Positions 9,536 to 39,009 of a DNA stretch of 42,260 nt are shown in pieces. The DNA is from an uncultured Planctomycetia bacterium. GTDB lineage: Bacteria; Omnitrophota; Gorgyraeia; 1-14-0-20-64-10. The stretch is from positions 1 through 42,260 of the forward strand of contig CAYJTC010000002.1 of the NCBI GenBank assembly GCA_964372955.1. Direction: 5' to 3'. Position numbers and translations under genes: made by a program. Positions within the stretch are counted from its first letter, which is position 1; every line of letters begins with the position of its first letter. Below the pieces are notes generated by a model. It had not been told where the DNA came from and did no database searches. It saw only the letters and a list, made by a program, of their open reading frames with translations.

Positions 9536-10239
9536 TCCCCTCTTGCCCCTTCCTTGCGCAGGATCTCGACCATCTTTCCCTTGGCCAGGCTCTCGAACCG
9601 CTTGGCGTCGGCCACCGTTCCCACGACAGAGCCGTAATGCATCGGCACATACACCTTAGCCGCAATGGCCCCCGCGGCTTTCGCCGCTTCCTCGGCGGTC
9701 ATCACGTAGGTGCCGCTGACCGGCAGAAGGGCCACATCCACTTTGATCTGTTTCATCTCCGGGATGAAATCGGTGTCGCCGGCATGGTAAAAACGAGTTC
9801 CGTCAACCTCCAGGATGAAGCCGACCCAGCCGTTTTCCTTGAGATGGAACATCTTGTTGGCGTTGTAGGCCGGCACCGCCTCGATTTGAACCTTCTTCAA
9901 GGTCAAGACATCCCCCGGCTTGACCGGATGAATCTTCCCCGGAACTCGGGCCTGCTCCAGCTTCGCCACAGCTCCTGTGACGGTGACGATCACCGTGTCG
10001 GCCTTGGCCACCTTGATCACGTCCGGCGGGGAGAGGTGGTCGAAGTGAGGATGGGTGATCAAAATCAGGTCCGCGTCGTGCGGCTCCCCCTCGATCTGCC
10101 AAGGGTCGAAATAGATCGTCACCTCCGCTCCGACTAGCTTGAAGGCGGCGTGCCCCAGCCAGGTTAAACCCCGGGTATAAGAGGAAGCCGGCATCTCCAC
10201 AGCGCTAAAAGCGGTCGTGAGTCGTGAGTCATGGGTCAT
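9532..10239 (-). CDS. MBL-fold metallo-hydrolase (UPF0173-like)
   Basis: Core LTWLGHAAFKLVGAEVTIYFDPWQIEGEPHDADLILITHPHFDHLSPPDV, and later YHAGDTDFIPEM and LLPVSGTYVMTAEEAAKAA. The start is uncertain. ATG 10239 is conservative. ATG 10371 would add a hydrophobic signal-like stretch (RRGLFFLGFLLLL) but would translate a REP hairpin. The track start 10482 overlaps the giant ORF end. Confidence 0.85.
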   Translation of the reverse strand: MTHDSRLTTAFSAVEMPASSYTRGLTWLGHAAFKLVGAEVTIYFDPWQIEGEPHDADLILITHPHFDHLSPPDVIKVAKADTVIVTVTGAVAKLEQARVPGKIHPVKPGDVLTLKKVQIEAVPAYNANKMFHLKENGWVGFILEVDGTRFYHAGDTDFIPEMKQIKVDVALLPVSGTYVMTAEEAAKAAGAIAAKVYVPMHYGSVVGTVADAKRFESLAKGKMVEILRKEGARGE

Positions 10240-10402: not shown

Positions 10403-13400
10403 TTACAGGTAGAGTTCGGGCTGGCGCTCGAGCCGCTTCTGCCAGGTCCGGAAGGAGACGTCCTCGATCTCCAGGAAATCACCCAGCCCGCTCAGGCCCG
10501 AAGGGGTCCAGATGGTCAGGACATCCAGGCCGCGGCCGATGGCGTCCACTTGCATCTTGGTGATCACATCCGACGGGTCTTTATCGGCATAGGGAGGGCT
10601 TTTCAGATTGATGATTTTCGCCGCCAGGCCGGTGTCCTTTAGCCAGCCCTCAATCTGCCCGGCGTGGTGGACATGCTCGGCGAAGATCACCAGGTTGATC
10701 TGCTCGCCGGGGACCGGCTTCAGCTGAGCCAGGCCCTGAAGCACCTCCTCGGTGGCCACCTCCGGCCCCAGGAAGATCACCTTCCCCGCCGTCACGCCGG
10801 GCTTCAGCCGGATTTGAAGCTCCTCAAGCCCGGCCGTAGCAGGTTGGGCTTTAACCCGGGCCTGAGCGAGAGCTTTCGGATACCATTCCTCGTCAACCAG
10901 CTTGCGAAGGGCTTCCGCCACTTGTTTGGCGCGCGCTCCTTGGCCTTCGGTGGCAATGCGCAACATCCCCTCTGTCAAAGAACCTCTGAGCCAGACGAAC
11001 GCCTTCCCGCCGTCCAGCTCCAACTCCATAATCCATCCTCCCATACCGAAGGGAGTCCCATTCTCGCTGGGCAAGGTCAAACCGGCTCCCGCCGGATCGG
11101 CCGGACCATAAGCGGGAGAGAGACCGGTTTCCGAGTCGTAAACAATCCGGTAATCGGCCGTAGGATGCACCGATGTCCCGTCCGCCAGGATGAGTCCCTC
11201 TTTCTGGAGTCGATCCCGCAGGTTTTCCTTCCACAGGGTTTCCCAAGCCCGTTTGAAAGGGATCATGAGCGCCTCCGGAACCTCTCCCTGTGCTCCCTGA
11301 TCGCGGATCGGGGTGGAGAAACGCCAGCTTCCCTCGCTCCGGTCTCCCGGCAGGCTCCCGAGAATATCCAACAGAGTGGGCACGGCAGGCACTTCTACTG
11401 GAGGAACGCCGTTGGGTACCGCGGCGTTTCTGGCTTGGAGCCAACTTCGCGCCCATTCCGGATCGGTGGCCACCATCCCTAGAAATAGAGCGGTCATCGC
11501 CCCGTTGCGGCTGGTATCCCCCAAAAACTGAGCGCTCTCTCCCCGGAATACCGTGCCGCCGTTGGCTCCTTCGATTCCAAGAACCACCCGATAAGTAGGG
11601 CGGCCTCCGGCGTCCTTCTGTGCCTCCAGCTTCCTCATCTTCTCCAAGACGTTGACCTCTCCCACCTCCACTGGGAACACCTCAGCCCCAAAGGCCTTGG
11701 CGATTTCCAAAACCCGTTTGGAGGTGGCGCTGTGAGCGACGACGGCCAATTTTGAAGCATCCCCCGCCGGTCGAGCGCGGGCGGCTCTGGCTAAGCCCAA
11801 AGCCATGTTCATCGCGGCCACCTCTTGGGGATTGGGCTCAACGGCCTGACCGGTCTTGGGATCCAGAAGGAGCGTGTTCGCCCGGTCGGCGTCGTAATCG
11901 GTGATGATGGCGAAATGGGCTTGGGCTTCTTTCAGCACCCTCTCAGCATCGGCCAACGCGTTCCCCTTCTCTGGATCGTTCACCGGCTCCAGGATATGCT
12001 GGGGCTGTCCTACAACATGGTTGATCTCGATCAGATCAAACCCCATCCTTTCTAGGAATTCCGCGTAATACCCGGTTGCCGCCCCTCCATTAGGATCAAC
12101 CACAATCCGGACCCGTTTGGCTTTCTCTCGAAATCCCTGGAACTCCTCCTCCTGTTCCAAACCCCACATCTGCCGAGCCTCTTTGACAACCTGCCCCAGA
12201 ATCTTCTCCCGAGAGACCGTTTCAAGTCTGCCGACGGGCACGGCGTTCAAGCGCTGGACAAATTCCTGTGCCTGCTCAGGAGACGCCCCCGCCTGCGCGG
12301 CCCACCGGCGGAATTGGTCGACGACACTCTTCATCTGGCGCGAGGGAAGCAGGATCCCTCCTTCCACCAGACTTCCCGCGGGTTCGGTGGCGGCTGTTGG
12401 GTATTTTACGCCGTTCCATCTTAAAGGATTGTGGCTGGCAGTGATGATGCCCCCTCCATGCGCTTCCACCAAGCGCACTAGACTCTCAGAGAGGGGGGTG
12501 GGAAGGATTCCCCCCTCGACTTCAACGAACCGGACCTTGACGTTGAACTCCTGGGCTGCGACCGAAATCCCCCGCATGTGGGCCTCCTGGATGGCCCTGC
12601 CGGTTGGACGGGGATCCCGCCCAAAGATGAAGGTAAACTCCGAACGGCCGGAAAATTTCTCAATCTGGAGTTTGGCGAAAAGGTACCCGTATCGCGCGAA
12701 GATCAGCTTCTGCGCGGGGGAAAGCTTCACATCCGCCAGCGGAGCCAAAATGGGAGGGTCGACGTTCGGGCCCAAATCGGCCCGCACACCGGAGAAGGAC
12801 TGGATCAGTGTCCTGTCCGGATCAGTCACCTCGGCCCACTTGGACCAATCGATGGGGCCTAGCCATTCCTCCGGGCCGGCCACAACCTCGCTTTGCGGAT
12901 GGACGAAGACGGCGAACTCCCCTTCGAAACCCATCTTTGAACGAACGACGGTGACATTCCCTCCGAGGGACTGTTGGATCGCCTCCAGGAAGATATCCGG
13001 CTTTCCACTTTCCTCAGGAGGCAGTCCCCAGAGCTGGCCAATCGATCCGGCCAAGACAATCGGCCCCTGCGTGAAGGGCTGCCCGGCGTAGGCGTCCAGG
13101 TAAACCCGCAGGACCTGGCCCAGCTCGGTTCCAACCTGCTCCAGGAACTGGCGGGCCAGTCTGCCGTGGATCGTTGAATCGTTCAAAGCTCTCTGGGTTA
13201 TCCCCTGGAGAACGATCAGCTGCAGCTTCTCGTCCGCCAAGATCGGCCGGTGGGCGCCGGGAAGATCATCCTCAGTCAGATTTTGGGTCACCGGACCACC
13301 GAATAATCGGTCAATCTCTGCATCGGACAGACGGTACAAATCATTGTTTCTCAGGAATTCAATGGTGCGGGCCGCAAGCCACGGCCCTCCAAACTCCTTC

Positions 13401-16400
13401 TCGGCCGGCTCTTCCTCCGGCTGAGGATCCGGCAGTCTCCCTTCCTTGGGAAAATGATAGACCCACGGGCCGTCCGCCTGCCTCATGACACTCCATCCAA
13501 ATTCCCCCAACAGGCCGCCCACTTCTTGTCCGGGGAGTGAGTCGATCGGCTTTCCGCCTTGAAGAACACCGATGCTGGTACCAGTCCCTAAGGTCAGAAC
13601 CATCCCCTGTTGAAGCCCCTTGAGAGCCCCTTCTTCCCAAAGAAACTCTCCCCATACCCGGGCCTCATCCTCGGAGACGATTCGGATGGGCAGTTCCCTC
13701 CCGAAGAGGGAATAGAGCTCCTCTCCCAGAAGCTGTTTGAAGGGGGTGGGCTTCCGAAACCCGACGATCTTGGCGTTCTGGACGGTCAGGGGGCCAACCA
13801 CCCCGCCGAATGAGATCCCCACTTCTTTCAGATTCTCTGGCTGAGCGTCAAGGTCCTCCCGGAGCGTTTTCTGAATCAGTGCGGCGATCACCTGAGCCGC
13901 CCAACGCTCATCCGTATCTTGCCCAAAATCGGGATACATATTCTTCAGTTTTTCCCAAGTGAAGTATTCCGTGGCGATCTCAGAGGCCGCCCGGGCGCCG
14001 TCCTTCTCCCCTACCCCGACCCCCACCTTGAACGCCCCCATGCTTAGATAAACACCGACATCCGGCGCCTGAGCTTCCCTGGTCCCCGGGGCGCTCACCG
14101 TCTCGCGCCCAGCGCCAGACTCGGCCTCCTTATTCGTCGGCCGGCGCTCCTCCAGGCCGGCCGCCGCGCCTGCCAAGTCAGATAGAGCCTGGATGACCGA
14201 CCGATTCGAAGTTTGAGGCAGTCGGTTGACCAACTGGTCCAGCACCGCCTCCCAACCGCCTAAGAGGGCCGCCGCCCTGCGCTTGGCAATTTCGATCTTG
14301 AGGATCTCACAGACTCCCGCGGGCCCCAGAGTTGGGCAGCGGATGACTGAGCCGGGCAGCTCTTCCTGAGGCTCTCCCACCAGCACTGTGGTGATCCCCT
14401 CCTGGCTCATGGAAAGCCCTGCAGCATCCGCGTCATCGAGGAAAACGACTTTCCCCTTCCGATGTCGGAGGAAATCATCCTTCCCGAAAGCGTACAGGTC
14501 GATGGAGGTGTCGAGGAAGGGGCCCACCAAGGTTTCCCCAAAAGCCTTTACCAAACGGGACCGAACCTCTCTACCTGCCGATTCCAATGCGTTTTCCGCC
14601 AGACCGTTAGGGCGAAGCTGCACGATGCCATACAGCTTGGGGCCCTGACCTTCCTGCATCACATAGAGGTTCAGATCCCCCAGCCGGTAAAGATCCATGT
14701 CCGGATTGGCCGGTGGAATCACCGGATCCTCCAGCTCTCCCCCGATGTTCAAACCTGGGATAGGCCCCCACTCCGCCGACTGGATGGCCGCCACAATCCG
14801 GTCGATCGTGAACTCTCCGGATCCCATGCGCTGGGTCACCAACTCCGGAAACTCCTCTTTCAACCAGCGGGTCCCATTGCGGCCCATGTGCTGCAATGGG
14901 CCGGTCCCTTCTTGGGCCCGCTGGCGAAGATTCTGATCCGCTCGGTTGGAAAGAAAGCCCCCTTTCCCCCCCAAGGCCAGATATTCCCCGCACAGCCGCA
15001 GCACCTCCGGATCGGCCTGGGCCTTGCCGTCCGGAGCGCCGGCACGGTCCAGGTCGATCCAGATTTCATCGGCAGGAGGATCCCACGCCAGCCGTTCCAT
15101 TCCCTTGAGAGCCGGCGGCAGCAGAGCTTCCCACCTCTGCGCCAACTGCTCGGGCCGATAAGCAGGCTGAAGGACGCGGATCCCTTTGACCTCGCGCGGG
15201 ACCGCCTCCGTTAAAGGCAGACGAACCACCTGGATTCCGGGAAACGTCTTCTCCGCATCCTTCAGTTTCACCGGACCTCGGGGATGCAGGTGGAAAACCC
15301 TCTGATACGCTCCCGGATTTTGTCGGGCAAGCCAGTCGAAGGTCTTTCCTTCCATCACCTCAGGCGAGGGCCCTTTCGGATGACGCTGGCCAAGCATCAC
15401 GATGCTGACCACCTGACTCAAAGTCGCTGTCGGCACCTGACTTTGGATGATCCCCTCCATCGCCTTCCGATAGTCCACGATGTTGTAACGGATGGTAAAG
15501 AGCAGGTTGTCCGGGTTGACCATCCAGATAATCGTGGCTCCCCGTTTCTTGGCGTCGATGAGCGCCTGAATCACCCCGGGGATGGAGAGGATGCTGGCGA
15601 CACTCTCATGGAAATTTCCGGGCGCGATGACGACCAGCTCCGCCCGCCGGATCTGCCGCAGAAAGAGCGGATTGGCGGCAAAGGGCGGCTGCCCCTTGCC
15701 CGAGACAAACCGGTAGGCGCCGGGTCCTAAGAGAACCGAGGCCCGATCCTTCGGGCTCCGTAGCATCTGCTCCAGAAGCTGCTGCGCCTTCTGCGCAGAG
15801 ACCGGTTCCCCGTTGGGGCCGGCCACCAGATCCGAGAGGATCTCCAGACTCTTGGGATCCCCCACGGGAGGAACGACTAATCCTACCGTGCCCAGCCCCC
15901 GCCGCACCGTCGCGTGCGCTCGGCCAGTCCTCAGATCACCATGCACCGTCACGATCTGAGGAGACTCAAAGGTGGTCGGCAGAACCCAGGGCCCTCCGAC
16001 GGCTTCCCGGAGCAGATATTCGGCAACCAGATACTTTTCTGTGTCGATGGGCCCTCCCCTCGGATAGGCCCCGACCATGACCTTCGCCCCGACATCCAAC
16101 AAATTCTGCAAGGTCTGGCCGCTGACGGCGATATAATCCTTCTGAATCAGCTCTGCATCGACAACCTCAAAGACCTGCTGGAGGAACGCCAGGAACCGAA
16201 CCAGCGCGGCCCGCCCTTGAGAACCCAAAGGCCCCTGCTCCTCCTCCCAGCGGGCGATCATGCTGGGGATCCCTGTGACCAGCTCCTCCATCTTTCCCTG
16301 CCGATACTCCTTCTGGGCCGCCCGTGAAACCGCCAGTTCCCACAGGGACCCCGGAGGAATTTCGGAAGGCAGCTCCAGCTTCAGCAGCTCCCGGATCAGG

Positions 16401-18781: not shown

Positions 18782-18811
18782 CAAAAAAGAGTCGCTAAGG
18801 CAACGTGAATT

Positions 18812-21800: not shown

Positions 21801-24800
21801 TCCAGCCCCGCGCGGGCCGGCTCGACGATGATTCTGGTCGGGGTGAATGTGGCTTTGACCCGACCACCGACATTGCCAGGCACACTCCCCGCGCCACCCA
21901 ACAAATCCCTCACCTTCCAGGGACGGTCGCGCACCTCCTCAGGGGAAACATACCAGGGCGAGGGGACACCCTGCGTAGTGACCTCAGCCCGCGGATTCCG
22001 TGCCGCGAATTCCAGGATCTTCTCGTAGACCTCTCCCTGCTCGCCCTCCGTCGTCTCCAACCCCGCCGCGGTCAACGGGAGGTCGGCTCCGGAGCTTGTC
22101 AGCGCCGCCGTCAGCTGAGAAACTCGCGTCTCGATAAATTGCGTTTTCGGCCCCAGGATCTCGACCACAAACTTGTTGCGAGCTGAGTCGTCCAGGAGCT
22201 CTTTCCCCTCTAGCCCCAGAGTGGCGACGACCTTCGCCACACGCTCATCGATTCTCGTCTTGATCAACTCCCTCGTCGCCCGGCTCTGATCCCGATAAGC
22301 GGCGAGGATCTCCGACACTCTTTTGCCTTCATGATTCTCAAAGAGGGTCTGCCGTTCGTGTTCCCATCGCCTGTTTTGGGCCGGGCCTTTCAGGAGGGCC
22401 TGAACCGATTCGGCGTTCAGGCTTCCGGCCTTTTCCAGACGGTCCAATTCCCGGAAAAGCCCCTGCGCGGAATACTGCCTGAGGAACTGCCGATAGGCCT
22501 CGATCCCTCTGATCCGGTTATCCTTGTGCAGGTAGTTGTTGCCCAGCCCCGTGACTCCCTGAGGGCTTGGCCTTTTACCGCCGTCCTTTTCTCCCATATA
22601 AAGGGTTCGTTCCGGATCCACGATATCTTCCAAGTGCGTAAGCGCCTCTTTGACATGGATCGCCGTTTCCGGAGCGTAAATCTCCCCCCGGTATGTGGAG
22701 CGCAACGATTTCTTTCTAGCCGACCATTTCCACTCGTTTCGCAGAAGCATATAGGGCAGATACGTCAGAACCCAACCGGGAGCCACCTCGTTGTAAAGCC
22801 TCTGCTTGGCGCCTAATTTGGTCATGCTGTCCGGATCCGGAACCCCCATGAGCATGAAGGGAAATGTGACCGTCTGCCCGCTGGAGACCAGGATTCCTGT
22901 CTGGAAGAGCGCGTGATCGGACCCGCTGAAATCCGCGGGGAGCTGGAAGACCACGCCGGATCCCCCAAACCCGCCTTTGGGAAGCTTCAGCTCCAGCTCC
23001 GCTCCCGACCCGTCATGATTCGCCGTGATGATCCCAGCCCCGACATTGAATCCGTAAGGAAGGTGGCCTCCCAACACCAGGGAGGTCTTGTGATGGCTGG
23101 TGACAAAATCTTCTCCCAGGTCACCCCCGAACTCCCCTTTCGCCACAAGGCCATCGGGCCCAAGATACATTCCGGTCACGTTGACTCCCTGTTCGGCCGT
23201 GGCGGCTTCGTCAAGGAACATCTGCGTCAACTGAGACGCAGTCGCCGCGTGAGCCTGGGGTTTCATGACCACAAAATTGAGCTGGGCGGCGTTATCAACC
23301 ACCACTTTCTGCTTGCGAACGTGCTGGCGGACGGCCTCTTCGCCGCCTTGGCGAAGCTGAGCCAGTTTGGCTCCAGTCAACTCGACCAGCAGCCGCGGCG
23401 TCTCTTGTTCACTCCTGGCCAAACGGAGCAGCTCTTCCATTTCCGCGGAGGTAAACCCTCCGATCAGCACTGCTTCCTTGACATGCTGGGCATGATCAAG
23501 GAAAGTGTTCTTGCCAACGTAAACGTTGATGACCTGCGAGGTGGTGTCGATGACGGACCCTTCCTCCACAATCCCCCATTTCGATCGGGCCAGCTTGACG
23601 TACTCGGCGTGCTCCGCCCGGTATTGATCCGCGAATCTCTTGTCGGTGAGGAGCCGGCTGGACAGGTGCAACGCTCCTTTCAGGATCAGCTCCGGATGAA
23701 CCGGCAGTTTCCGAACGCCGGCCTCATTTCGGATCTCATGATACTGGGAGAGCCCAAAAGTGGTCTCCGGGTCAGCGGCCATCCTAGCTTTCACCACGAT
23801 GTTATCGCCCTTCAGAACGTAGTTGGTGATCTCGGAAGAATCGATGGCCATGTTCTTTCCCAGACGCGAGTTGCGGATCTCGGAACTAAAGATCCCCCTG
23901 AGCTTCCGGGTGATCCCGTCGGGCAAGGTGATCTCTCTGGGCTCGATCCGCCCGATCTCAACCCGCTCGAAGAAGCGGTTCCCCAAGATCCGGGAAAGAA
24001 ACGCCTTCACCTGATCCGAGGACATGGCGGCGTCAATGAAAACGTCATCCCAGCTTCCGATTTTTCCGGAACTGTTCACGGCGAAATTTCCTTGTCTCTC
24101 CAGAAGAGCTTGTTCCTCTTCGCTGAGCCCTCTGAGCGACTCCGCCGCCTTCCACGCGCCGGCCTGATCAGGCGCCAGGTTGACAGCCCGCACCGACGCC
24201 AGGAACTCGGAGGTTTCCCGGTCTTGGCGAATGGCGGCGATCGGATCGAAGGCCTCCACCTCCTTCGCCCACGTCAAGAACTGCTCCTCCAGCCCGGCCT
24301 GGGAAGGCGGTGGGGACTGGACAGAGGTGGCGGGGGAAACAAAGAAGTAACTTGCGCTGGTGGTGGGTCTGTCTTCTTCCAGGCCGGCCAGGTTGGTGAC
24401 GATCTTGGTGACCCCCTGCTGCTGGTAGGTGAGCACCCGGATCAGCTGATCCGGGTCATGGGCGAAGCCGAAAACCATCGGCAGGTTGATGCGATAGATT
24501 TCCAGCGCTTCCTGCAACAGTTGGTAGACCTCTCCGATTCTCAATCTGGCCTCTTTGGGCGTCGCCTCGGGAGAGTATTTGGATTCCAACGCGCTAATGG
24601 CCCCCGTGATCTGCTGCTTCAAGATTCTGTCCTTTTCAGACAGGCCGTCATCATCCTTCTTGTTCAGAGCCGCGTAGGCGCGGATGATGACCACCTCGTC
24701 CAAAAACTGCGGGTCCTGTGGATCATCGAACTGTCCGAATACACCGCGGGTTCCTGCAGGGTCTTCCAGCTCTTTCCAGATCGCTCTGGCCACCTTGGCC

Positions 24801-27800
24801 GCCCACTCCGCCAGCGGCTGGAAACGTTTCTTGGCCAGGAAAGAGGTGAAACCATGGATGGCCGCGATGGCCTCGACCGGGTCCCCCGTTGGAAGCGCGA
24901 TCACGTGGTCGGGCACATCCCCGCCCATCTGGTACAAAGACTCCGCCTCTTTCTTCGAGATCAACACCATGACCGTGGTTTCCCAACGGGGAAACCGTTT
25001 CCTAAGCTCTTTGTAGAAGACCGCCCGATCCGGCCCTTCGGCCCCGGAATCGTAGACGACGACCAGCTCTCCTCTGCGCGCCCGCCGGACCTGGCCCATT
25101 TCCTGGCGGTCGACATCCCACGGTATCCCCGCCCTCTTCAACAGCTCCACCCGTCGGCCAACCAGCTGGTTCACCACCAGCCGGTTGAGCACCAGCAGCT
25201 CCAGAAGATCCCCGTTTGGAGTCGCGATCACTGCGTCCGAATGGGTCACCCCTATGGTCTTGTGCAATGTCAGCGGGATGTTCTCCAGGGACTGTTTTCG
25301 CCCGTGGCGAAACGCCTGGAAATGACCATCCGGAATCGAGAGGTCCTTGAGGTCCCCCTCAGTTCCGACATAGAGGAAGAACCCGGGTTCCCGGTCGGTC
25401 GGGAAGGGAGGGTTGACCGCCCGCGGAATCATCTCGGTGGTCCGTTTCTTCATGTCGGGATCGTAAGCGGCCTTTTCCGAGGGGCCCACATTGCCGTACC
25501 AGACCACCAGCTCGCCGCCGGGCTGCTGCGCCGCAAAACCGCCGTGCCCGAAGTTGCTGGGCTCCTCCGGATAGGAAACCATTCCCAGGTATTCCCGGAT
25601 CCACCGCGCAAAATCCCGGGCCAGCCATTCCCGCGCTCCATATCCTCCCGGCCATATATTGAATCCTTCCCATCCGCGGTCCTGACTGCGCTTCTCGGCG
25701 AACCCGGCAATCCGGTTGATCGCTTCTGAGTTGTATCCGGAATCGGAAGTTTCATCAATTGTTCTTTGAATTCCCGTGGATGCCGCCGCCTCCCGGGAGG
25801 TTTGCTCCTGCTTAATATGGGAACGGGCCTCCTCCTTCCATGTTTCTGTGAGATTGGTGCCTTCGTCGATGGAGCGGAGCGCCAGTTGAGCCACCAGCCG
25901 ATCCAAGGCGGAAAAGACAGCGAATCCCTGATCGTACGGCCTGCCCTGAAGCTCCAAGAGGTTGGAGAGTCTGGGCCGGATTTCCTGGACAAGCGGGGTG
26001 GTCTCTGAAGAATGAAGGCAGATCTGCTGATCCGGGGCGATATTCCATCGAGCGATCAGGTCGGCGGCCTTGCGCTGTTCCGTTTCATGGCCTTTGTCAT
26101 TGGGATCTCGCCCGTAAATCATCGCCTCGCCGGGACGGACGAAGACAACCAGGGTCCCCCGCGGAAGCGAGTATCGGCCGCCCCTCCTGGCCAACGCCTC
26201 CTCGTACGTCATCACTTCGATGGACGCTGGACAGAGGTGCTGATAGGAGTTCCTGACCAGCTGCATGGCGTACGTGTCCGTTCCGTTGCCCACCAAAAGG
26301 ATTTTCTGAATTGGTTCTCGAGTCAACCGGGCGTGATTCAGAGCGTCCGCAAAATGCCTGCGATTGGCGCGAACGGTCTCCGTCACCGTGGATGGATCCC
26401 ATAGTTCCTTTTGGCTCTGATACTGCTCGTTGGTCCTACCATTGCTCGCGGCAATGTCCCTCTCCAAGAATTCAGAAGAAGAGCGAAGCACGGTGGCCGT
26501 CACCCCCACCACCTCCGCGAACTTAAGACCCAGTTCGCTGACTGTCTTGCCCTTACCTCTTTCGATAAAGGTGACGTTCACGGGCCGGAAATCGACCCCA
26601 TAGCCGGCGTGGTGGGAGGTCCATGACCGCCTGGAGTTGTCCCTCCAGTAGCTTTCCACATCCGAGAATCTGTCCCTGTAACTCTTGAGTTTTGCTCCAC
26701 CCTTCTCCGAAACAGGTTTCTCCCAGGGCAGAACCTTTCCTTGGAAGGAACTGTCCAGGACAGCCGCCAGTGTCCCCGCTTGGAGACTGCCATCCTCCAT
26801 CCGGCTCCCATGGGCGCGGAGTTTTTCCAGTCGCTGGTGAGCCTCTAGATTAATCCTCGGCGCATCCAACGAGCTCTGCGCCGCGGCAAGAGCCTGCCGA
26901 CGCCATCGTTCAATCCCGAGAATTCGCAGCAGGAGGATGGCATGGTTGGCCGTCCCTGTGGCGGGAACGGAGCTCTCCGGAGTGGACCGGGTCCTCAAGG
27001 TGCCTCCGCTGACGCGCGCGAACCGATCCACAGCGCTCCCCGCCGTGTTGGTCACTCCGATCACTTTGGCTCCGCTGGGAAGGGCCGTCGCGATCAGATT
27101 GAGGGCAGAGCCAGTTTCTCCCGACTGCGAAACCACCAGAAGGATGGTCTTCTCCCCAAAGGTCAGGTTCGGAGTCAAGCGCAGTCTCAAGCTGTCCGAC
27201 TGGCGGATGGTGTCAAAAAGGGGCTCCTCAGCGTCAGCAATCTCCAAGATGAAGGTGGAGGTCCCGGATCCGGCACCCACGACCACGATCTGCGCCTCCG
27301 GGTCGCTCAGAAGCTTCAGCATTCCGGGGGTTAGACCGGTCCCGTCCTCCCCAACTTCCAAGTGCGGCTCCAGCAGATCATACTCGTCTCTCCGGACGTA
27401 CCGGTCAAAGGTCCTCAGGTAAGTGGCGTGCTGAACCAAAGTCTCCAGCTCGTAGGGGGAGAGCTTCCGGTAGGTCTCTTCCCCCTCCTTCAAAACCTCG
27501 ATCCAGGCGGCATCCAGCGTGCTTACCTCCTGAGCCAAGTTCACTGTTTCCGAACCGTTCTCCCAGGTCTTGTAGCGATTCACCTGGGTCCCATCCACCG
27601 TATAGATGGTCCAGGGCTCCACAAATTTCCCTTCCGCGGTTCCATAGACCACATTGATCCCTGGAAGAGACGTCGGATATCTTTCTTTGACCCTCCCCAT
27701 CTGAGGAGCCGCCCCGCGAAGCTCAGAAACAGCCACCACCCGGGCGATCTCACCCTGAGAATCCCGCTCCACCACGAGATTGACCTGAGTGGTCTGTGTC

Positions 27801-30274
27801 TGGGAATGGGCTCTGGCCACCACTCCGCCGTACGGGTCGTTGAGGCTAGAGACCTGGATCGTAATGTTTAAGCCTTTCCAGAAAACGTCTCGGAAATCCA
27901 GCGGAGACGCCTTGGAGAGGAATGCTCCGAAACCGGTCGGCTGAGGCTGTTTCGTCTCCGGATGAGGGTCGATGGGCTCTCCATTGTGGAGGTCAAAGGT
28001 CAGATACCCGTGCCACTTATTCTCTTCCGTTCCCCGCTGGTCGTAATAACTCGGATCCGAGATGGCCCTCTCAAGAACCTGCACAAACGCCTCGGAAACC
28101 ATCTCCTGGAACTTCTTGCCTCCCATCTGCTTCGAAGCCAGCAGCTCGTCTGCCGTGAAGAGAAACCCGTGCTTGGCTAGGAGCAACCGCATTTGTCTGA
28201 TTTCATTCCTATAATCGTAGATCTTTCGCTCTATTTTTGCTTTCTGATCAGCAGTAGCTTTTAAGAGGGCCTGCCTCAGGCTATGGACCCTCTCGTTGAC
28301 CTCCCCCAGCTGTTTCCCCAGCGCTTTGAAGACCTCCAGGACGTCGATTAAGCGGAACAGGCGCCGAAGCGCGACCTCCGACGGCTCTACGGAGAAATGG
28401 CCTCCATCGTTTTGGGTCAAAGACATCAGGACCAGAAGCATGAGAAGCACTTCCGAATCGGTGGTCCCCTGGATCTTCACCCCTTTGGAGTCCAAGTAGG
28501 CCCGCACCCAGTCATAAGTCTCCCAATCCCCGTTGTGCGAAAGGCTGAAGACCCCGTTCTCCCACCCTTCCTCCAAGAGCTGATCGATCTGACGGCCATC
28601 GTCTATCCCCAGCAAAGAAGCCAAGACGGGCAGAATATCCTCCAGATCGACTTCCCAATGATGGGCGTTGGCCAGCTGGAATCCGCCTTTTGTCGCGAAA
28701 CGGGTGTGAAAATAGACGCCGCGCGCGGAAATGCGGGCCAACGGGTGGTCCCGCCGTCCTTTTTGGGTCGTGACGATCCAGTCGGAACTGACGGGGGATT
28801 CCTGCTTCGCTTCAGCCTGCAGCTCTCCTCGCCCAATGGCTTGAAAGAAGCCGGAAACCACATCCTTCACCCGGCTGGCGTCCTCTCTTTTCATTCCCTG
28901 CTGATTCGCGGTGACTCCTCCGACGACCCGGGAAACAGCGAAGAAGCGGATCGACTTTAAATGGCCCTCTGGGCTCTCCACCAGCTTAACCCGTTTGGCG
29001 CGGGCCCATCGCCGCAGCTCCAGAGTTACCGAGAGGGGTAGGATTTCCCTAACCAGATCGGCCAGCGGCATCTCATACTTGATCAGAAGGGCCGCGGCGT
29101 CGAAACCGCGGGGCTCCAGCAGCTCAATGGCCCGGTAAGCGGCCTCATAAGGCGAAGAGTCCGGCCGGATCCCGAAAAAGGCTCCTTTCTCGAGCTCCGA
29201 AGACGCCAACGAAGAAGGCACGCTCACCACGCCGCAGCAGCCGATCACGCCAGCCAGATGGGATGCGGAGAGAACCCGGACCCCTCTGGGAAGAGCCCCA
29301 TCCGTCCGAACTCCCACCAGCCCCCGCCCTCCGATCCACCGGCTCATGAACTCCCTGCGGGAAACGGTGACCTCGGCGGTCCCGAGGACCCCCTCTTCTC
29401 CAAAGGCCGGCTCCGTAAAGGTGACCGCTTCCGGCGTTGCCTCTTTAACGACAACAAAATGACTCTCATCCAAGTGGGCGATGAAATGTCCGGCCTGTGT
29501 CAGAGATCCTAAATCCTCTTCTCTGGCAGCCACCCCTTCCCAGCGAATCCGGGAGCCTGCCGACGCTCCTTTTTGGACCGTTTCCAGACGAGTCTGAATG
29601 TCCAAAAGAGAATCCGCCAGCATCCGATGAGTCATTCCACCATGCTGACGCTCCACGTAAGAGAATCCTCCCGTGCGGACCAGCTGATGCAGGATGAGAA
29701 TCGCCGTCTGCCGCTCCCGGCTGTTGAATTCATCGCTTTGCTCCTCTTCCGGGCGCCGGAATTGGGGATCCGAAGTCAGATTGGCGATCGCATCCGCACC
29801 GCAGGTGACGCAAGCCACGGGAGATGCCCCGATGACTGCTTCTAGCTGCGCTTCAACTTCCTGTTTGGAAGGGAGCCGCCGGGCCAACTCTTTGGAGCGG
29901 TCCTTAAGGAATTTCATTCCCGCAAGAACCTGATCCTGGAGATTCGCCTGCCGTTCAGGCAGTGAGGCCAGGAACTGATCCAACTCTCCCAGGAGCGTCC
30001 GATCCTGAGCAGTGAGGGTCCGATTGGAAATGTCCTTTTTCCGTTTCGGCTCCACCAGAACGGAGGTGTGGCCAATAATCGCAGCAACCGGAGTCGTCGC
30101 GCCGCCGCCCAGCTGTTCCTCCAGGCCGGCTTGGGACTTGCCCTCGATGCCGGGCCGCAGGGTCCTTCGACCCAGCTCAGGACTGGCTCCGGCGGGAAAA
30201 GCTTGTGACAAGGTAAGGGAAAGGATGAGTAAATACGCGAAGAACCGCCGAAACAGAAAACCCTTCGTCGTCAT
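18812..30274 (-). CDS. Giant multidomain protein A (3820 aa): signal peptide, C39-like Cys peptidase, GlmS-like Ntn amidotransferase with SIS modules, GlmU-C-like beta-helix, transaldolase-like barrel, shared C-terminal domain
   Basis: Uninterrupted 11,463-nt ORF. ATG 30274 with GAGAGGGGA 7 nt upstream.
- aa 1-30: signal peptide (MTTKGFLFRRFFAYLLILSLTLSQAFPAGA|S).
- aa ~150-345: papain/C39-like peptidase (PVACVTCGADAIANL; AGHFIAHLDESHFVVVKE).
- aa 347-~620: class-II amidotransferase as in GlmS (CGVVS, AYRAIELLEPRGFDAAAL, YFHTRFATKGGFQLANAHH, SLSHNGDWETY, GTTDSEVLL).
- aa ~995-1125: SIS (IVVVGAGSGTS, LLVVSQSGETGSAL, VIGVTNTAGSAV).
- aa ~1320-1470: SIS-like (ILLVGNGTDTYA).
- aa ~2240-2450: hexapeptide beta-helix (VGKNTF LDHAQH VKEAVL IGGFTS; GAGIITANHDGSGAELELKLPKGGFGGSGVVFQLP, compare the GlmU NYDG region).
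- aa ~3020-3290: transaldolase/FSA-like (VMLNPTL, GQVSFQVNSRLS, VFKVDGT, FTNITGQGS, ITQMAGRV).
- aa 3642-3820: C-terminal domain. Confidence 0.93.
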   Translation of the reverse strand: MTTKGFLFRRFFAYLLILSLTLSQAFPAGASPELGRRTLRPGIEGKSQAGLEEQLGGGATTPVAAIIGHTSVLVEPKRKKDISNRTLTAQDRTLLGELDQFLASLPERQANLQDQVLAGMKFLKDRSKELARRLPSKQEVEAQLEAVIGASPVACVTCGADAIANLTSDPQFRRPEEEQSDEFNSRERQTAILILHQLVRTGGFSYVERQHGGMTHRMLADSLLDIQTRLETVQKGASAGSRIRWEGVAAREEDLGSLTQAGHFIAHLDESHFVVVKEATPEAVTFTEPAFGEEGVLGTAEVTVSRREFMSRWIGGRGLVGVRTDGALPRGVRVLSASHLAGVIGCCGVVSVPSSLASSELEKGAFFGIRPDSSPYEAAYRAIELLEPRGFDAAALLIKYEMPLADLVREILPLSVTLELRRWARAKRVKLVESPEGHLKSIRFFAVSRVVGGVTANQQGMKREDASRVKDVVSGFFQAIGRGELQAEAKQESPVSSDWIVTTQKGRRDHPLARISARGVYFHTRFATKGGFQLANAHHWEVDLEDILPVLASLLGIDDGRQIDQLLEEGWENGVFSLSHNGDWETYDWVRAYLDSKGVKIQGTTDSEVLLMLLVLMSLTQNDGGHFSVEPSEVALRRLFRLIDVLEVFKALGKQLGEVNERVHSLRQALLKATADQKAKIERKIYDYRNEIRQMRLLLAKHGFLFTADELLASKQMGGKKFQEMVSEAFVQVLERAISDPSYYDQRGTEENKWHGYLTFDLHNGEPIDPHPETKQPQPTGFGAFLSKASPLDFRDVFWKGLNITIQVSSLNDPYGGVVARAHSQTQTTQVNLVVERDSQGEIARVVAVSELRGAAPQMGRVKERYPTSLPGINVVYGTAEGKFVEPWTIYTVDGTQVNRYKTWENGSETVNLAQEVSTLDAAWIEVLKEGEETYRKLSPYELETLVQHATYLRTFDRYVRRDEYDLLEPHLEVGEDGTGLTPGMLKLLSDPEAQIVVVGAGSGTSTFILEIADAEEPLFDTIRQSDSLRLRLTPNLTFGEKTILLVVSQSGETGSALNLIATALPSGAKVIGVTNTAGSAVDRFARVSGGTLRTRSTPESSVPATGTANHAILLLRILGIERWRRQALAAAQSSLDAPRINLEAHQRLEKLRAHGSRMEDGSLQAGTLAAVLDSSFQGKVLPWEKPVSEKGGAKLKSYRDRFSDVESYWRDNSRRSWTSHHAGYGVDFRPVNVTFIERGKGKTVSELGLKFAEVVGVTATVLRSSSEFLERDIAASNGRTNEQYQSQKELWDPSTVTETVRANRRHFADALNHARLTREPIQKILLVGNGTDTYAMQLVRNSYQHLCPASIEVMTYEEALARRGGRYSLPRGTLVVFVRPGEAMIYGRDPNDKGHETEQRKAADLIARWNIAPDQQICLHSSETTPLVQEIRPRLSNLLELQGRPYDQGFAVFSALDRLVAQLALRSIDEGTNLTETWKEEARSHIKQEQTSREAAASTGIQRTIDETSDSGYNSEAINRIAGFAEKRSQDRGWEGFNIWPGGYGAREWLARDFARWIREYLGMVSYPEEPSNFGHGGFAAQQPGGELVVWYGNVGPSEKAAYDPDMKKRTTEMIPRAVNPPFPTDREPGFFLYVGTEGDLKDLSIPDGHFQAFRHGRKQSLENIPLTLHKTIGVTHSDAVIATPNGDLLELLVLNRLVVNQLVGRRVELLKRAGIPWDVDRQEMGQVRRARRGELVVVYDSGAEGPDRAVFYKELRKRFPRWETTVMVLISKKEAESLYQMGGDVPDHVIALPTGDPVEAIAAIHGFTSFLAKKRFQPLAEWAAKVARAIWKELEDPAGTRGVFGQFDDPQDPQFLDEVVIIRAYAALNKKDDDGLSEKDRILKQQITGAISALESKYSPEATPKEARLRIGEVYQLLQEALEIYRINLPMVFGFAHDPDQLIRVLTYQQQGVTKIVTNLAGLEEDRPTTSASYFFVSPATSVQSPPPSQAGLEEQFLTWAKEVEAFDPIAAIRQDRETSEFLASVRAVNLAPDQAGAWKAAESLRGLSEEEQALLERQGNFAVNSSGKIGSWDDVFIDAAMSSDQVKAFLSRILGNRFFERVEIGRIEPREITLPDGITRKLRGIFSSEIRNSRLGKNMAIDSSEITNYVLKGDNIVVKARMAADPETTFGLSQYHEIRNEAGVRKLPVHPELILKGALHLSSRLLTDKRFADQYRAEHAEYVKLARSKWGIVEEGSVIDTTSQVINVYVGKNTFLDHAQHVKEAVLIGGFTSAEMEELLRLARSEQETPRLLVELTGAKLAQLRQGGEEAVRQHVRKQKVVVDNAAQLNFVVMKPQAHAATASQLTQMFLDEAATAEQGVNVTGMYLGPDGLVAKGEFGGDLGEDFVTSHHKTSLVLGGHLPYGFNVGAGIITANHDGSGAELELKLPKGGFGGSGVVFQLPADFSGSDHALFQTGILVSSGQTVTFPFMLMGVPDPDSMTKLGAKQRLYNEVAPGWVLTYLPYMLLRNEWKWSARKKSLRSTYRGEIYAPETAIHVKEALTHLEDIVDPERTLYMGEKDGGKRPSPQGVTGLGNNYLHKDNRIRGIEAYRQFLRQYSAQGLFRELDRLEKAGSLNAESVQALLKGPAQNRRWEHERQTLFENHEGKRVSEILAAYRDQSRATRELIKTRIDERVAKVVATLGLEGKELLDDSARNKFVVEILGPKTQFIETRVSQLTAALTSSGADLPLTAAGLETTEGEQGEVYEKILEFAARNPRAEVTTQGVPSPWYVSPEEVRDRPWKVRDLLGGAGSVPGNVGGRVKATFTPTRIIVEPARAGLEEIGQAETEEQVRGRILQQAKDWDRAEFGAQKLSFFTHPQNSRERNRFIRESLEKEFGQLGEAEKRSALRFLADATFLMASEGIQERTLRNKELFGADVLTPEVIQAEVQEWHALLNRLEALAKPLAQQVLADWRQDLLQIQLANVEKDFDAKTNKGQSFLAYWAEKAPTGSLSEFVTYFNEKIQKARLRRTVRLTGQVLGNDYGAGIDMLTDYYTFVMLNPTLSRRNVRERRSLQLKVKEAVFNFVRSNPGYDPKQRKWALLREATMVAGEPARRALLPIFIHEKGMRGQVSFQVNSRLSKRHEVVADIFLLGDRFAAETQAMMKELGVTEIFPKQQLDAFLENPLGNGYSKVHPVFKVDGTLAGVYGRVLEAWNEALTQAGDDLDQVDPTQINTESIIEDVHTQGLFTNITGQGSVAGAVAGFMAQVTANMKARTQKIPIHAAYITQMAGRVEAALRWVAIDRVRRALQAREDQDPKAAELLAKLEKEIKEGALKNPDSNGLMDNLVLREAAAYVSFRLSSDKAVRRAGAAIIQQTERILNALRTRLASNGVTPEETGQLLASTRLTVPDDTMSHFFQTSGRNIRIGFFPIAARGVEEGDQPDVPNGVTQTQFDAHIQAIEKNPAVLDGVFQEVEPELIQELIDSSIGDEFRRFYEVNDGEKELLTRLGIYQSEWSGQGWKLSELRQTAFARHTETGDWGMEIKDDDEAWLDRVKQQFMGDTNLWGRELEVLARLIEVDARQDAKSAAKALFAPLFEGENNPDQALETAVDNYLTNKPSPVIKKSVADLTLEPEFLPFKQNFDQARQAAAAGLEERTEGAAPTAVPPVRTLGTTPLVTATTVLNPVTRTIGVSRTSGIPLVRVPSAVDAHKGLILAHEALAFLEMVPSIEPVDGQQVPIVAIVENGDHLRKVKARAEQLGLQITLIDASVSYGGNVMLAARETKKRLSAEGFSYQLALFLSDLMEVVKFLGVPIPESFIQAAEGVLKEQVSQYL
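30197..30260. repeat. Direct repeat copy 1 (the 5' coding end of giant ORF-A)
   Basis: AAAAGCTTGTGACAAGGTAAGGGAAAGGATGAGTAAATACGCGAAGAACCGCCGAAACAGAAAA aligns with 30689..30751 at roughly 85 percent identity by eye. Confidence 0.85.
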
Positions 30275-30652: not shown

Positions 30653-30769
30653 TTAGCCACCCACCTGTTTTCCTACAACACCCGACTCAAAAGCTTCGGC
30701 GAAGGTAAAGGAAAGGATGAGTAAAAACGCGAAGAACTGCCGAAAATAAAAAGCTCGATCAGATCTCAT
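30653..30769 (-). CDS. 38-codon mini-ORF, diverged paralogue of the giant ORF-A signal peptide
   Basis: ATG 30769 with AGGAGG (30780..30785) 10 nt upstream. It reads MRSDRAFYFRQFFAFLLILSFTFAEAFESGVVGKQVGG*. Compare the ORF-A N-terminus MTTKGFLFRRFFAYLLILSLTLSQAFPAGASP. Confidence 0.4.
   Translation of the reverse strand: MRSDRAFYFRQFFAFLLILSFTFAEAFESGVVGKQVGG
30689..30751. repeat. Direct repeat copy 2 (inside the mini-ORF)
   Basis: AAAAGCTTCGGCGAAGGTAAAGGAAAGGATGAGTAAAAACGCGAAGAACTGCCGAAAATAAAAA, the partner of 30197..30260, about 490 bp away. Confidence 0.85.
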
Positions 30770-35330: not shown

Positions 35331-35338
35331 AAAATTTA

Positions 35339-36547: not shown

Positions 36548-36619
36548 GGGGACCCCCTTAGAATTGAGGTAAATCGGTTAGGTTAAACGTTTTAAAAATA
36601 CTCGATTGAAGATCGGTTG

Positions 36620-37624: not shown

Positions 37625-37648
37625 AGGGGGCTGGCCCCTTTGGTCCCT

Positions 37649-38941: not shown

Positions 38942-38947
38942 CCCCGT

Positions 38948-39009
38948 CAAAAGGGGTCAGGCACTTTTTGACAGCCTCTAACCGGGTTGTCATAAAGTGC
39001 CTGACCCCT
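38948..39009. repeat. REP-like hairpin, GGGGTCAG family
   Basis: AGGGGTCAGGCACTTT (38952..38967) pairs with AAAGTGCCTGACCCCT (38994..39009). The right arm encodes the last residues (GSGTL*) of the upstream gene. The first 25 nt are identical to 5659..5683. Confidence 0.85.

Follow-up and report, generated by a model that had tools for sequence, protein, structure and literature searches.

The closest described systems to the one studied here are the giant proteins of Omnitrophota, which raise the questions of whether they stay whole or are cut, at which positions, and why enzymes of a cytoplasmic type should bear export signals. West-Roberts et al. 2023 (bioRxiv 10.1101/2023.11.21.568195) described such giants, in which C39 domains lie close to the N-terminal signal peptide and PGM/PMM as well as glycolytic domains are predicted to be extracellular. 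A 2026 preprint (10.64898/2026.06.07.730766) defined the multi-enzyme metabolic cluster as a class of its own, where PGM and ROK domains are frequent, and reported signal peptides or transmembrane helices, as called by DeepTMHMM, in 94% of the long Omnitrophota proteins. These preprints place the enzymes, by prediction, outside the cytoplasm and suspect that the proteins are cleaved; neither of them mentions delimiter motifs, leader types, a terminal domain, or TIKI-like or MBL partners. Here we analyse a pair of tandem giant open reading frames (ORFs), termed ORF-A and ORF-B, in a 42,260-bp stretch of DNA (positions 1 to 42,260 of contig CAYJTC010000002.1, GenBank assembly GCA_964372955.1; in the following, the window). 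Their products are modular, a strict pentapeptide, AGLEE, recurs between the modules, and each product begins with a leader of its own type and ends in a common terminal domain.

The pair shares several features with the Omnitrophota giants: the phylum, a predicted N-terminal signal peptide, and many unrelated enzyme Pfam families along one polypeptide, with PGM and ROK among the commonest; close to the N-terminus there is a C39-like domain, which in the window is a borderline assignment. The families that ORF-A and ORF-B carry on single polypeptides are SIS (sugar isomerase), glutamine amidotransferase (GATase), DUF4954, NTP-transferase, CofD, ROK and PGM I-III, with no dominating repeat. The differences concern size and context. 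The window pair measures 2.8-3.8 thousand amino acids (kaa) and is thus not of extreme length, whereas the main focus of the preprints is on proteins of 10-147 kaa; homologous modules are, however, present in relatives of 4-6.5 kaa. Moreover, the pair has a signal peptide only and no clear transmembrane helices, and its A/B tandem stands in synteny with TIKI-like and MBL genes. A preliminary description of this DNA knew of no system with such an architecture. This claim does not hold, since multi-enzyme giants of Omnitrophota are found in both preprints, and the paradox that enzymes of a cytoplasmic type stand behind export signals has likewise been recorded for this phylum. ORF-A and ORF-B are therefore smaller members of a protein class that had been described, and what is newly added here is the delimiter grammar and the partner genes.

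Results

Two tandem giant ORFs

ORF-A, an A-type giant (18812..30274, ATG start, 3,820 aa), and ORF-B, a B-type giant (10403..18784), both lie on the minus strand, as do all window features given below unless the plus strand is named. From its TTG start ORF-B has 2,793 aa; its likely start is the ATG at 18781 (2,792 aa), from which ORF-B residues are counted throughout, and NCBI record P0001 is a 2,792-aa protein identical to it. The two ORFs are separated by 27 nt if ORF-B starts at the TTG and by 30 nt if it starts at the ATG, and together they span 19,872 bp, which confirms the two uninterrupted tandem ORFs that had been described. All motif strings quoted in that description were also found (SQSGET, ITANHDG...GGFGGSGVV, VFKVDGT, AGRGTRF, TASHNP, DYDADR, GIEGANGG and RGSLTEG). 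The coding periodicity GC1 > GC2 < GC3 is kept in each 1.5-kb block of both ORFs. At NCBI, ORF-A and ORF-B are both recorded as singletons, on one 50,630-bp contig. An index of contigs had no exact match to either ORF or to two of their neighbours.

Tandem giant ORFs upstream of an MBL-OmpA-ThrC block are also found in independent NCBI and ENA assemblies (loci L081, L087 and L088). Logan copies exist for one of these three loci, and in a further Logan locus, L086, the giants lie upstream of the same MBL gene. Since the tandem arrangement recurs upstream of MBL in independent assemblies, a chimeric assembly is very unlikely.

The GC content at third codon positions (GC3) is about 0.71 in both giant ORFs and in the downstream MBL gene, and 0.79-0.86 in other neighbouring genes, with about 0.83 in most of them. 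Differences in expression, a recent gain of these genes or recombination may account for this. Scans of the window detected no Rfam family (hence no glmS ribozyme) and no tRNA.

A strict pentapeptide recurs between modules

AGLEE occurs five times in each of the two ORFs, compared to an expectation of 0.02 per ORF, and is otherwise absent from the six-frame translation of the window. In ORF-A the copies are at aa 49-53 (30116..30130), 1963-1967 (24374..24388), 1993-1997 (24284..24298), 2822-2826 (21797..21811) and 3637-3641 (19352..19366), the last one ahead of the C-terminal domain (CTD); a variant, AGLET, is found at aa 2737-2741 (22052..22066). In ORF-B they are at aa 60-64 (18590..18604), 353-357 (17711..17725), 653-657 (16811..16825), 1541-1545 (14147..14161) and, again last ahead of the CTD, 2650-2654 (10820..10834). 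Two further variants, which bring the number in the pair to three, are found in ORF-B: TGLES at aa 48-52 (18626..18640), and a relic, AGPEE, at aa 1968-1972 (12866..12880). The relic marks the ROK/PGM junction, a position at which the PGM module of relatives opens with xGLEE-W. Its Leu-to-Pro change would probably block cleavage and leave the ROK-like and PGM modules fused. The AGLEE copies differ in their synonymous codons and in their flanks; thus, selection acts on the peptide, and a DNA repeat or recombination site is ruled out. The preliminary description had used AGLEE as a segment boundary, which was a good call.

An exhaustive HMMER search with the ROK+PGM segment revealed a family of 852 relatives, many of them 2-6.5 kaa long and with signal-peptide-like N-termini. 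In 20 members of the clade that uses xGLEE, the pattern G[LVM]EE was observed 96 times compared to 4.0 expected, the residue ahead of its Gly is A, S, T or G at 92% of the sites, and P, Q, A and S are enriched in the upstream flanks. The neighbouring non-giant genes (14,189 residues), in contrast, contain the motif once, with 1.18 expected. Homologous modules are framed by delimiters in every locus where they are found. The GlmU N-terminal (GlmU-N) module, for example, is bracketed by delimiters in the window, in L087 and in L088, at differing positions, and in relatives the PGM module always starts with xGLEE-W.

Other lineages of the family have other delimiters. SM[TA]G (12 observed vs 0.09 expected), RxExR (11-13 vs 0.1) and SSPx (8 vs 0.1) are enriched about 100-fold, and DGG occurs 6 times vs about 1 expected; all of these factors are upper estimates, as the SMTG, DGG, RxExR and SSPx patterns were picked by eye before testing. 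DGG is the classic C39 double-glycine site. A prepilin-peptidase-type site, in which Gly is followed by a hydrophobic residue and Glu, was considered for AGLEE and rejected, since inspection of the sequence shows no hydrophobic helix after the motif. A literature search found nothing relevant on AGLEE, or on delimiter or cleavage motifs in Omnitrophota giants.

Type-specific leaders, a common terminal domain and few cysteines

ORF-A begins with the signal-peptide-like leader MTTKGFLFRRFFAYLLILSLTLSQAFPAGA (30185..30274), which has an n-region charge of +3, a hydrophobic core and an AxA-type site. The corresponding leader of ORF-B, MKFPIRIRGLSAWTLIQALAFSGIPCPFAFA (18689..18781), is less hydrophobic than that of ORF-A. 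These calls are heuristic, being based on n-region charge, hydrophobic core and AxA site, and by the same measure a positive n-region, a hydrophobic core and an AxA site are present in ORF-A, ORF-B and 28 of the 48 long relatives. The Sec-type signal peptides that had been assigned to both ORFs are supported, by this heuristic, as signal-peptide-like N-termini with AxA sites. Beyond the leader, ORF-B is without a further hydrophobic segment near membrane-span level, and ORF-A has two marginal ones only, at the C39-like/GATase junction and in the CTD.

The leaders fall into two types. That of ORF-A is 50% identical to its counterpart in the A-type giant of L086, and the B-type leader, SAW.LIQALxFS...FA, is also found in P0004, P0006, P0008, P0011 and P0108 and in the L085 and L088 giants. 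Such conservation is unusual for generic Sec signals. The first delimiter follows 15-30 residues past the AxA-type signal-peptidase site (AFA|LR, AWA|LR). A related layout is seen in L090 (8895-13616), where a tandem partner of the DGG lineage has a signal peptide, the sequence HLRP and, about 20 residues on, its first DGG. Since this protein follows the leader grammar of the xGLEE clade, the grammar is older than the particular delimiter. An additional 38-aa ORF, MRSDRAFYFRQFFAFLLILSFTFAEAF... (30653..30769), resembles a relic or duplicate of an A-type leader (compare FLFRRFFAYLLILSLTLSQAF of ORF-A). It sits in the 824 bp that separate the TIKI-like gene from ORF-A; the matching gap in L086 is 14 bp. 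This suggests that the 5' end of the giant gene was replaced in the past.

All xGLEE-clade proteins end in a CTD of about 140 aa that follows the last delimiter and reaches to 0-4 residues from the C-terminus. A local profile search detects it in ORF-A (18815..19237, E = 1e-42, ending 1 aa short of the C-terminus) and in ORF-B (10406..10819, E = 4e-51). The AlphaFold2 model of the ORF-B CTD (pLDDT 90.8, pTM 0.83) predicts a small Rossmann-like alpha/beta fold. The two CTDs have no match in Pfam, NCBIfam or PADLOC. We rejected their identity as a known secretion or sorting domain, as Foldseek against the PDB returned generic Rossmann-like folds only (best E = 0.012, TM about 0.4).

Both proteins are depleted in cysteine, with 6 residues in the 3,820 aa of ORF-A and 5 in the 2,792 aa of ORF-B (0.16-0.18%), compared to 1.09% of the 14,189 residues of the neighbouring genes. 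Two of the ORF-A cysteines are in ACVTCGADAIANL and include the putative C39 nucleophile. Two further ones are in GC-CGVVSV, where Cys347 matches the obligatory N-terminal nucleophile of class-II amidotransferases. In the L086 relative the cysteines are similarly placed, at 153/156 and 348/351. Depletion of cysteine together with its retention at candidate nucleophile positions fits enzymes in an oxidising, extracytoplasmic setting.

Enzyme modules of ORF-A

Both proteins were split at AGLEE and the segments were scanned against Pfam and NCBIfam. The families named in the preliminary description were recovered, except that nothing was found for TAL_FSA and that C39 was borderline; in addition, the segments of the giant ORFs have no PADLOC match to anti-phage defence.

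ORF-A is headed by a C39-like, putative cysteine-peptidase module (about aa 140-346, 29237..29857). Its match to Pfam Peptidase_C39 (E = 7e-4, 19.8 bits compared to a cut-off of 22) aligned only the half of the profile that holds the His; the candidate catalytic residues, Cys155/Cys158 and His272 in SHFVVV (at 271), were assigned by eye. Sequence searches of the A-type N-terminal modules against the PDB gave two spurious matches for ORF-A (E 0.15-0.23) and none for the L086 giant, so that the C39-like peptidase stands as a borderline assignment. A profile built from these two modules was discarded, as their pairwise alignment was too noisy to use.

The next module (27395..29236) resembles class-II glutamine amidotransferases. 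It begins with Cys347 in CGVV and continues with HTRFAT (523), SHNGD (579) and TDSEVL (605); matched by eye, Cys347, HTRFAT, HNGD and TDSEV are what we take to be the equivalents of Cys1, Arg73, Asn98-Gly99 and Asp123 of E. coli GlmS, and the Asn-to-Asp spacing of 25 is kept. In ORF-A itself GATase_6 stays below its cut-off (E = 5.5e-4, 20.4 vs 27 bits), whereas the A-type relative of L086 passes the Pfam cut-offs for both GATase_6 (30.3 bits) and GATase_7 (27 bits). The following SIS core with SQSGET (26855..27217) is above the Pfam cut-off (26.9 vs 25 bits), and this region matches NCBIfam GlmS models (2.7e-15 and 2.7e-13) and a PDB GFAT (0.004). Only one SIS domain of ORF-A exceeds the cut-off, and neither a second SIS domain nor the C-terminal Lys of GlmS was identified. 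The GlmS-like reading is thus supported by the SIS core, with GlmS as the best NCBIfam family, and by a GATase domain that is above cut-off in the L086 relative only.

The hexapeptide beta-helix that had been proposed is also recovered: the module at 22067..24283 is a DUF4954, left-handed beta-helix (LbH) module (Pfam 1.3e-12). It is 27% identical (E = 2e-41) to the corresponding part of the L088 A-type giant, whose precomputed matches include Hexapep_GlmU. An 80-aa module between two delimiters (21812..22051) has no family match. Finally, the 810-aa module at aa 2827-3636 (19367..21796) had been read as a transaldolase/FSA-like barrel. This identity was rejected, as the module has no match in Pfam, NCBIfam, PADLOC or the PDB, in the latter even at E = 10.

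Enzyme modules of ORF-B

The first module of ORF-B (287 aa, 17726..18586) has no Pfam, NCBIfam or PADLOC family; it holds VTVLLDSVFSGDTY, which by eye is like a PRPP-binding (phosphoribosyltransferase) motif, again without a profile match. It is followed by a GlmU-N, uridyltransferase-like module (16826..17710), with AGRGTRF at aa 394 and the G-x-G-T-R signature kept. This module matches NCBIfam GlmU (1.1e-30, covering positions 9-229) and PDB GlmU 9dqf (1.4e-16), as expected from the earlier reading as a nucleotidyltransferase; Pfam NTP_transf_3 is borderline, and the C-terminal acetyltransferase half of GlmU is missing. The delimiter-flanked modules of L088 and L087 are 37% and 33% identical to it. 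A YvcK/CofD-family module with long insertions (14162..16810) had likewise been recognised and is supported by Pfam CofD (38.1 bits vs a cut-off of 30) and by YvcK as the best NCBIfam family (5.6e-8).

The ROK-like module (12884..14146), which has homologues in P0014, P0047, P0048, P0055, P0067 and P0080, scores just above the Pfam cut-off (23.9 vs 22.9 bits), in line with the proposed ROK/PPGK-like kinase. Its phosphate-1 motif, however, is degenerate (SMGAFKV in ORF-B, with GAF for GGT, vs SIGGTKV in relatives), and the Zn-binding C-x-C-G-x-x-G-C motif of ROK kinases is absent by eye. The module may therefore be inactive, a pseudoenzyme.

The last enzyme module is a GlmM-like phosphohexomutase (10835..12868) with TASHNP, DYDADR, GIEGANGG and RGSLTEG. 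PGM_PMM I, II and III are above their Pfam cut-offs, and the NCBIfam models for archaeal (Arch_GlmM) and bacterial GlmM match at 4e-33 and 2.7e-13, respectively. In an alignment with 11 relatives of 32-58% identity, TASHNP, DxDxDR and GxEGxNGG are invariant and RGSxTE is kept in at least 90%. All four signature loops that had been noted are thus invariant or nearly so down to 32% identity.

The scores of the modules are far under the equivalog cut-offs (GlmS 55.8 vs 381 bits, GlmM 115 vs 439). Across relatives, the module content goes beyond the hexosamine set that had been claimed: additional modules in relatives include GHMP kinase, inositol monophosphatase, WD40, PIG-L, PP2C and methyltransferases.

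Partner genes and syntenic loci

The threonine synthase (ThrC) encoded next to the pair is 81-88% identical to proteins of several Candidatus Omnitrophica/Omnitrophota metagenome-assembled genomes, which places the window in Omnitrophota. In the syntenic locus L087 (GCA_016201735.1), ThrC (P0160) is named Candidatus Omnitrophica bacterium. Syntenic loci with giant ORFs were recovered from independent assemblies, namely L081, L086, L087 and L088. L081 (GCA_964373715.1) has giants of 4,734 and 3,375 aa. L086 (Logan) comprises a TIKI-like gene, the two giants (A-type, 2,945 aa, with GATase; B-type, 1,095 aa, with PGM), an S8 protease and an MBL gene, directly past which the contig stops. The L087 giant has at least 2,545 aa, with GlmU-N, PGM, GHMP and a CTD, and L088 (ENA) has an A-type giant with GATase, DUF4954 and Hexapep_GlmU and a B-type giant with GlmU-N and PGM. 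In L081, L087 and L088, MBL, (BatD), OmpA and ThrC come next after the giants. The flanking genes of the window and L081 have 68-78% DNA identity, and between the giants only the PGM module (55% aa identity) and the CTD (40%) are shared. Modules thus turn over rapidly about a core that recurs between loci and consists of GATase/SIS, LbH, GlmU-N and PGM. L085 and L090 contain tandem giants as well. A scan of GTDB genomes with the PGM alignment recovered mostly ordinary GlmM/PGM genes, with family members only in L001 and L002. In L085, a PIN/MazE toxin-antitoxin pair encoded on the other strand (482-1152) separates the CTD of one giant from the start of the next two tandem giants, which hints at a mobile or hypervariable locus.

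Upstream of ORF-A the window encodes a putative hydrolase of 582 aa with a signal peptide (31099..32847), which is tentatively TIKI/erythromycin-esterase-like. In L086 the orthologous gene is found 14 bp upstream of the A-type giant, and in P0036, P0051 and P0106, which belong to other delimiter lineages, the 582-aa unit is the first module, directly after the signal peptide. The protein has no sequence match in Pfam, NCBIfam or the PDB. Its alignment shows an invariant D42-x-H44, E72 (28 residues on) and a distal GGFH439. The 2His/2Glu pattern of the TIKI family (E-x-H, a Glu about 28 residues on and a distal G-x-x-H) comprises E3900/H3902/E3930/H4030 in RRSP and H85/E113 in Bcr135 (PMC6254334), and the residues of the partner appear to reproduce this TIKI/erythromycin-esterase arrangement, which we regard as a lead rather than a demonstration. 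The AlphaFold2 model (pLDDT 85.5) predicts an alpha/beta core that is interrupted by a helical insertion of about 300 residues. The sole Foldseek matches of appreciable probability were erythromycin esterases, 6xcq (EreC, 0.60), 6xcs (0.44) and 3b55 (0.38), at whole-chain values (E 0.15-0.38 for EreC and Bcr135, TM about 0.2) that are not significant. Between this gene and ORF-A there is also a 100-aa ORF (30793-31095), charged and coiled-coil-like, with no significant family.

Downstream of ORF-B lies the gene of an exported MBL-fold, metal-dependent hydrolase (9532..10230; Pfam Lactamase_B_3 5e-30, NCBIfam PRK00685 2.5e-33, UlaG-like 1.9e-11). It is 63% identical to a signal-peptide-bearing copy in L086, and an MBL gene directly follows the giants in L081, L086, L087 and L088. 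Read from a GTG, the MBL ORF reaches 10482 and overlaps the end of ORF-B by 80 nt. Its true start is probably internal, because similarity to L086 and L081 begins at about aa 95, past a hydrophobic, signal-like stretch.

Further upstream there is a cluster for sugar uptake and phosphorolysis (32910-41269). Its genes encode a fusion of a solute-binding protein with an ABC permease (38990-41269), another permease that weakly matches CBM30 (37649-38950), an HTH-containing regulator of the ROK family (35339-36547) and a phosphorylase of the cellobiose/chitobiose type from family GH94 (32910-35456). A link between this cluster and the amino-sugar modules is possible. Within it are two mirror-image ORFs without a family match, 36620-37624 on the minus strand (334 aa) and 36617-37615 on the plus strand (332 aa), of which codon-position GC favours the former (GC3 0.83).

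Discussion

A proposed polyprotein model

The sequences themselves show the modular build, the enrichment and placement of the delimiters, the grammar of leaders and CTD, the retained catalytic residues, the conserved, operon-like synteny with the partner genes, and the phylum. On the basis of these features we infer that ORF-A and ORF-B may be Sec-exported polyproteins that are cut at the delimiters into separate enzymes, a reading whose chances of being right or wrong we consider about evenly balanced and which takes in the predicted export, the cleavage, the protease and the site of action. The preliminary description had offered a polyprotein as one of two alternatives, and this was a good call. 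In the model each protein would consist of a type-specific signal peptide, a short leader up to the first delimiter, a string of enzyme modules that fold independently and each follow a P/Q/A/S-rich linker closing in [A/S/T]-G-L-E-E, and the alpha/beta terminal domain of about 140 aa. After export, a dedicated endopeptidase would cut at or beside the small-residue-Gly of the delimiter. Candidates for this protease are the C39-like module that heads ORF-A, which could act in cis or in trans, and the conserved TIKI-like hydrolase encoded just upstream; in some loci, such as L086, an S8 subtilisin adjoins the giants. The products freed would be GlmS-like, LbH, GlmU-N-like, YvcK-like, ROK-like and GlmM-like enzymes and the modules without a family. 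Class-II amidotransferases of the Ntn type need a free N-terminal Cys, which Cys347 might become through an extra cut or self-processing. The freed enzymes would work outside the cytoplasm of the producer, with amino-sugar phosphates and nucleotide sugars as their substrates, most plausibly on or within a host or prey cell to which the producer is attached. Attachment to a host or prey is a lifestyle reported for cultured Omnitrophota.

Several points weigh against this reading. Cleavage of the giants is proposed from sequence, and the delivery route into another cell is purely hypothetical; no toxin-type translocation domain was identified, although no search was aimed at one. Nor does any one protease type accompany every delimiter lineage. 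In ORF-A, Peptidase_C39 stays below the Pfam cut-off and is without a PDB match, and in the L086 relative it was not detected; the fold match of the TIKI-like hydrolase lacks significance. The enrichment of the alternative delimiters is inflated because the patterns were selected by eye ahead of the test. Moreover, long multi-domain stretches lie between delimiters (aa 54-1962 of ORF-A, 1546-2649 of ORF-B), so that not every domain is set apart by them. Finally, several modules require ATP, UTP, acetyl-CoA or glutamine, which are unavailable in the periplasm. What the kinase, uridyltransferase and acyltransferase modules require speaks against a purely periplasmic role and would favour action in contact with, or in the interior of, a host or prey cell, as with MARTX toxins. 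Among the modules of the window or of relatives, PGM, the SIS isomerase, NagB-like enzymes, PIG-L and phosphatases have no need of a nucleotide cofactor, and these could act extracellularly on released sugar phosphates.

Alternative explanations

The alternative that survives best, though we think it doubtful, is that the proteins are exported and remain uncut, as intact beads-on-a-string scaffolds at the surface or in the periplasm, with xGLEE as a structural cap or docking element. Structure indeed starts only a few residues past LEE, as the PGM module always begins with LEEW and the CTD model is confident from about residue 3. The multi-domain segments without internal delimiters would also be natural for a scaffold, no protease has been firmly identified, and the literature treats Omnitrophota giants of up to 147,000 aa as single anchored polypeptides. 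A cap, however, is unlikely to be swapped for SMTG, DGG, RxExR or SSPx while the modules remain homologous. The small-residue-Gly signature and its DGG variant resemble known protease sites, the first delimiter, 15-30 residues past the signal-peptidase site, is without an obvious structural role, and an uncut chain would deprive the amidotransferase of the free N-terminal Cys that it requires.

It is unlikely that the N-termini are uncleaved anchors, or have been misread, and that the pair forms a membrane-tethered metabolon on the cytoplasmic side, which would convert fructose-6-P to UDP-GlcNAc for the envelope, as in the megasynthase of the preliminary description. The set of modules (GlmS, GlmM, GlmU-N, LbH and the YvcK regulator) does represent a cytoplasmic, cofactor-dependent pathway, and the 2026 preprint assigns cytoplasmic domains to long proteins that have transmembrane helices only. 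A positive n-region followed by an AxA site predicts, however, an N-in topology with the bulk of the protein outside. Cysteine is depleted about six-fold or more compared to the neighbouring genes, the Zn-Cys motif of the ROK-like module is lost, and the partner proteins, too, bear signal peptides for export. In addition, standalone glmS and glmU are present in 174 and 176, respectively, of 176 Omnitrophota genomes (10.64898/2026.06.07.730766), and the fast turnover of modules between genomes with 68-78% DNA-identical flanks is unlike housekeeping metabolism.

Still less probable is a reuse of the modules as pseudoenzymes, that is, as lectin-like binders of sugars or sugar phosphates that serve in adhesion to, or sensing of, the cell wall of a host or prey. 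This would make the problem of extracytoplasmic cofactors vanish, and it would suit modules that are extremely diverged, with most matches far under the curated full-length cut-offs and with GAF in place of GGT in the phosphate-1 motif of the ROK-like module of ORF-B; West-Roberts et al. also tie the giants to cell-wall attachment. Yet the phosphoserine and Mg-binding loops of PGM, which catalysis requires beyond binding, are invariant family-wide, the catalytic motifs of GlmU-N and GATase are retained, and the nucleophile Cys is kept in an otherwise Cys-free protein.

Finally, an assembly artefact, be it a chimeric contig or overlooked frameshifts that fuse ordinary genes into giant ORFs, would suit a metagenome-type contig whose proteins are singletons, but can be set aside as highly improbable given that the coding periodicity is unbroken along 19.9 kb, the delimiters are confined to one frame, ORF-A and ORF-B each have their own leader and CTD, independent assemblies (NCBI, ENA and Logan) contain comparable tandem giants with the synteny conserved, and the protein P0002 is identical on six contigs.

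Implications

A polyprotein that is exported and then cut thus remains the reading we prefer for the pair. As a more tentative extension, possible rather than probable, Omnitrophota and perhaps other bacteria may use cellular polyproteins with a lineage-specific cleavage code and a co-evolving protease (a C39-like module in cis and/or a TIKI-like hydrolase that is encoded upstream or as the first module) to export a UDP-GlcNAc kit to a host or prey. If cleavage and delivery are true, this would be a rare polyprotein strategy in cells and a new route by which an episymbiont or predator deploys metabolism beyond its own cytoplasm. The grammar of leader, delimited modules and terminal domain gives concrete candidate cut sites and proteases and makes the question of cleavage testable, all the more so as the mid-sized relatives are small enough for expression and assay. 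It also provides a rule for dividing far larger giants into units for structure prediction.

Comparison with known systems

The canonical UDP-GlcNAc pathway (GlmS, GlmM, GlmU and YvcK/GlmR) supplies the best curated families for four modules of the window, and the PGM, GlmU-N and GATase motifs are kept. Unlike the proteins of that pathway, the domains of the window are fused, contain long insertions, are depleted in cysteine and stand behind signal peptides. The acetyltransferase part of GlmU, moreover, is replaced by a helix of the DUF4954 type in the other protein of the pair.

With viral polyproteins, which are cut by papain-like proteases at LXGG, and with C39 double-glycine leaders, the pair shares repeated small-residue-Gly sites between units. 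As in viral polyproteins, a Cys-protease-like module heads the putative polyprotein of the window and the site is specific to the lineage; the DGG of relatives corresponds to the C39 double-glycine site. In contrast to the viral systems, the pair is cellular and predicted to be Sec-exported, its C39 assignment is below threshold, and its cleavage is proposed from sequence patterns.

MARTX toxins are the third system to which the pair can be compared. They too are giant secreted proteins with unrelated effector or enzyme domains in series, which an internal cysteine protease frees in the cytoplasm of another cell. The MARTX effector RRSP, moreover, is an endopeptidase of the TIKI family (PMC6254334). 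Scans of the segments against Pfam and NCBIfam found neither RTX repeats nor a MARTX-type cysteine protease domain, and no C-terminal signal of a type I secretion system was seen. Unlike MARTX, the window pair would use an N-terminal Sec-type signal for export, and its cargo is sugar-metabolic instead of cytotoxic. MARTX toxins are cut at Leu in loose linkers, whereas the putative cut site of the pair is a strict pentapeptide. The relation is thus a resemblance in a possible way of working and not one of membership. If the delimiters are indeed a cleavage code, the pair would be a metabolic counterpart of MARTX effector delivery, carrying a nearly complete UDP-GlcNAc/amino-sugar enzyme kit.

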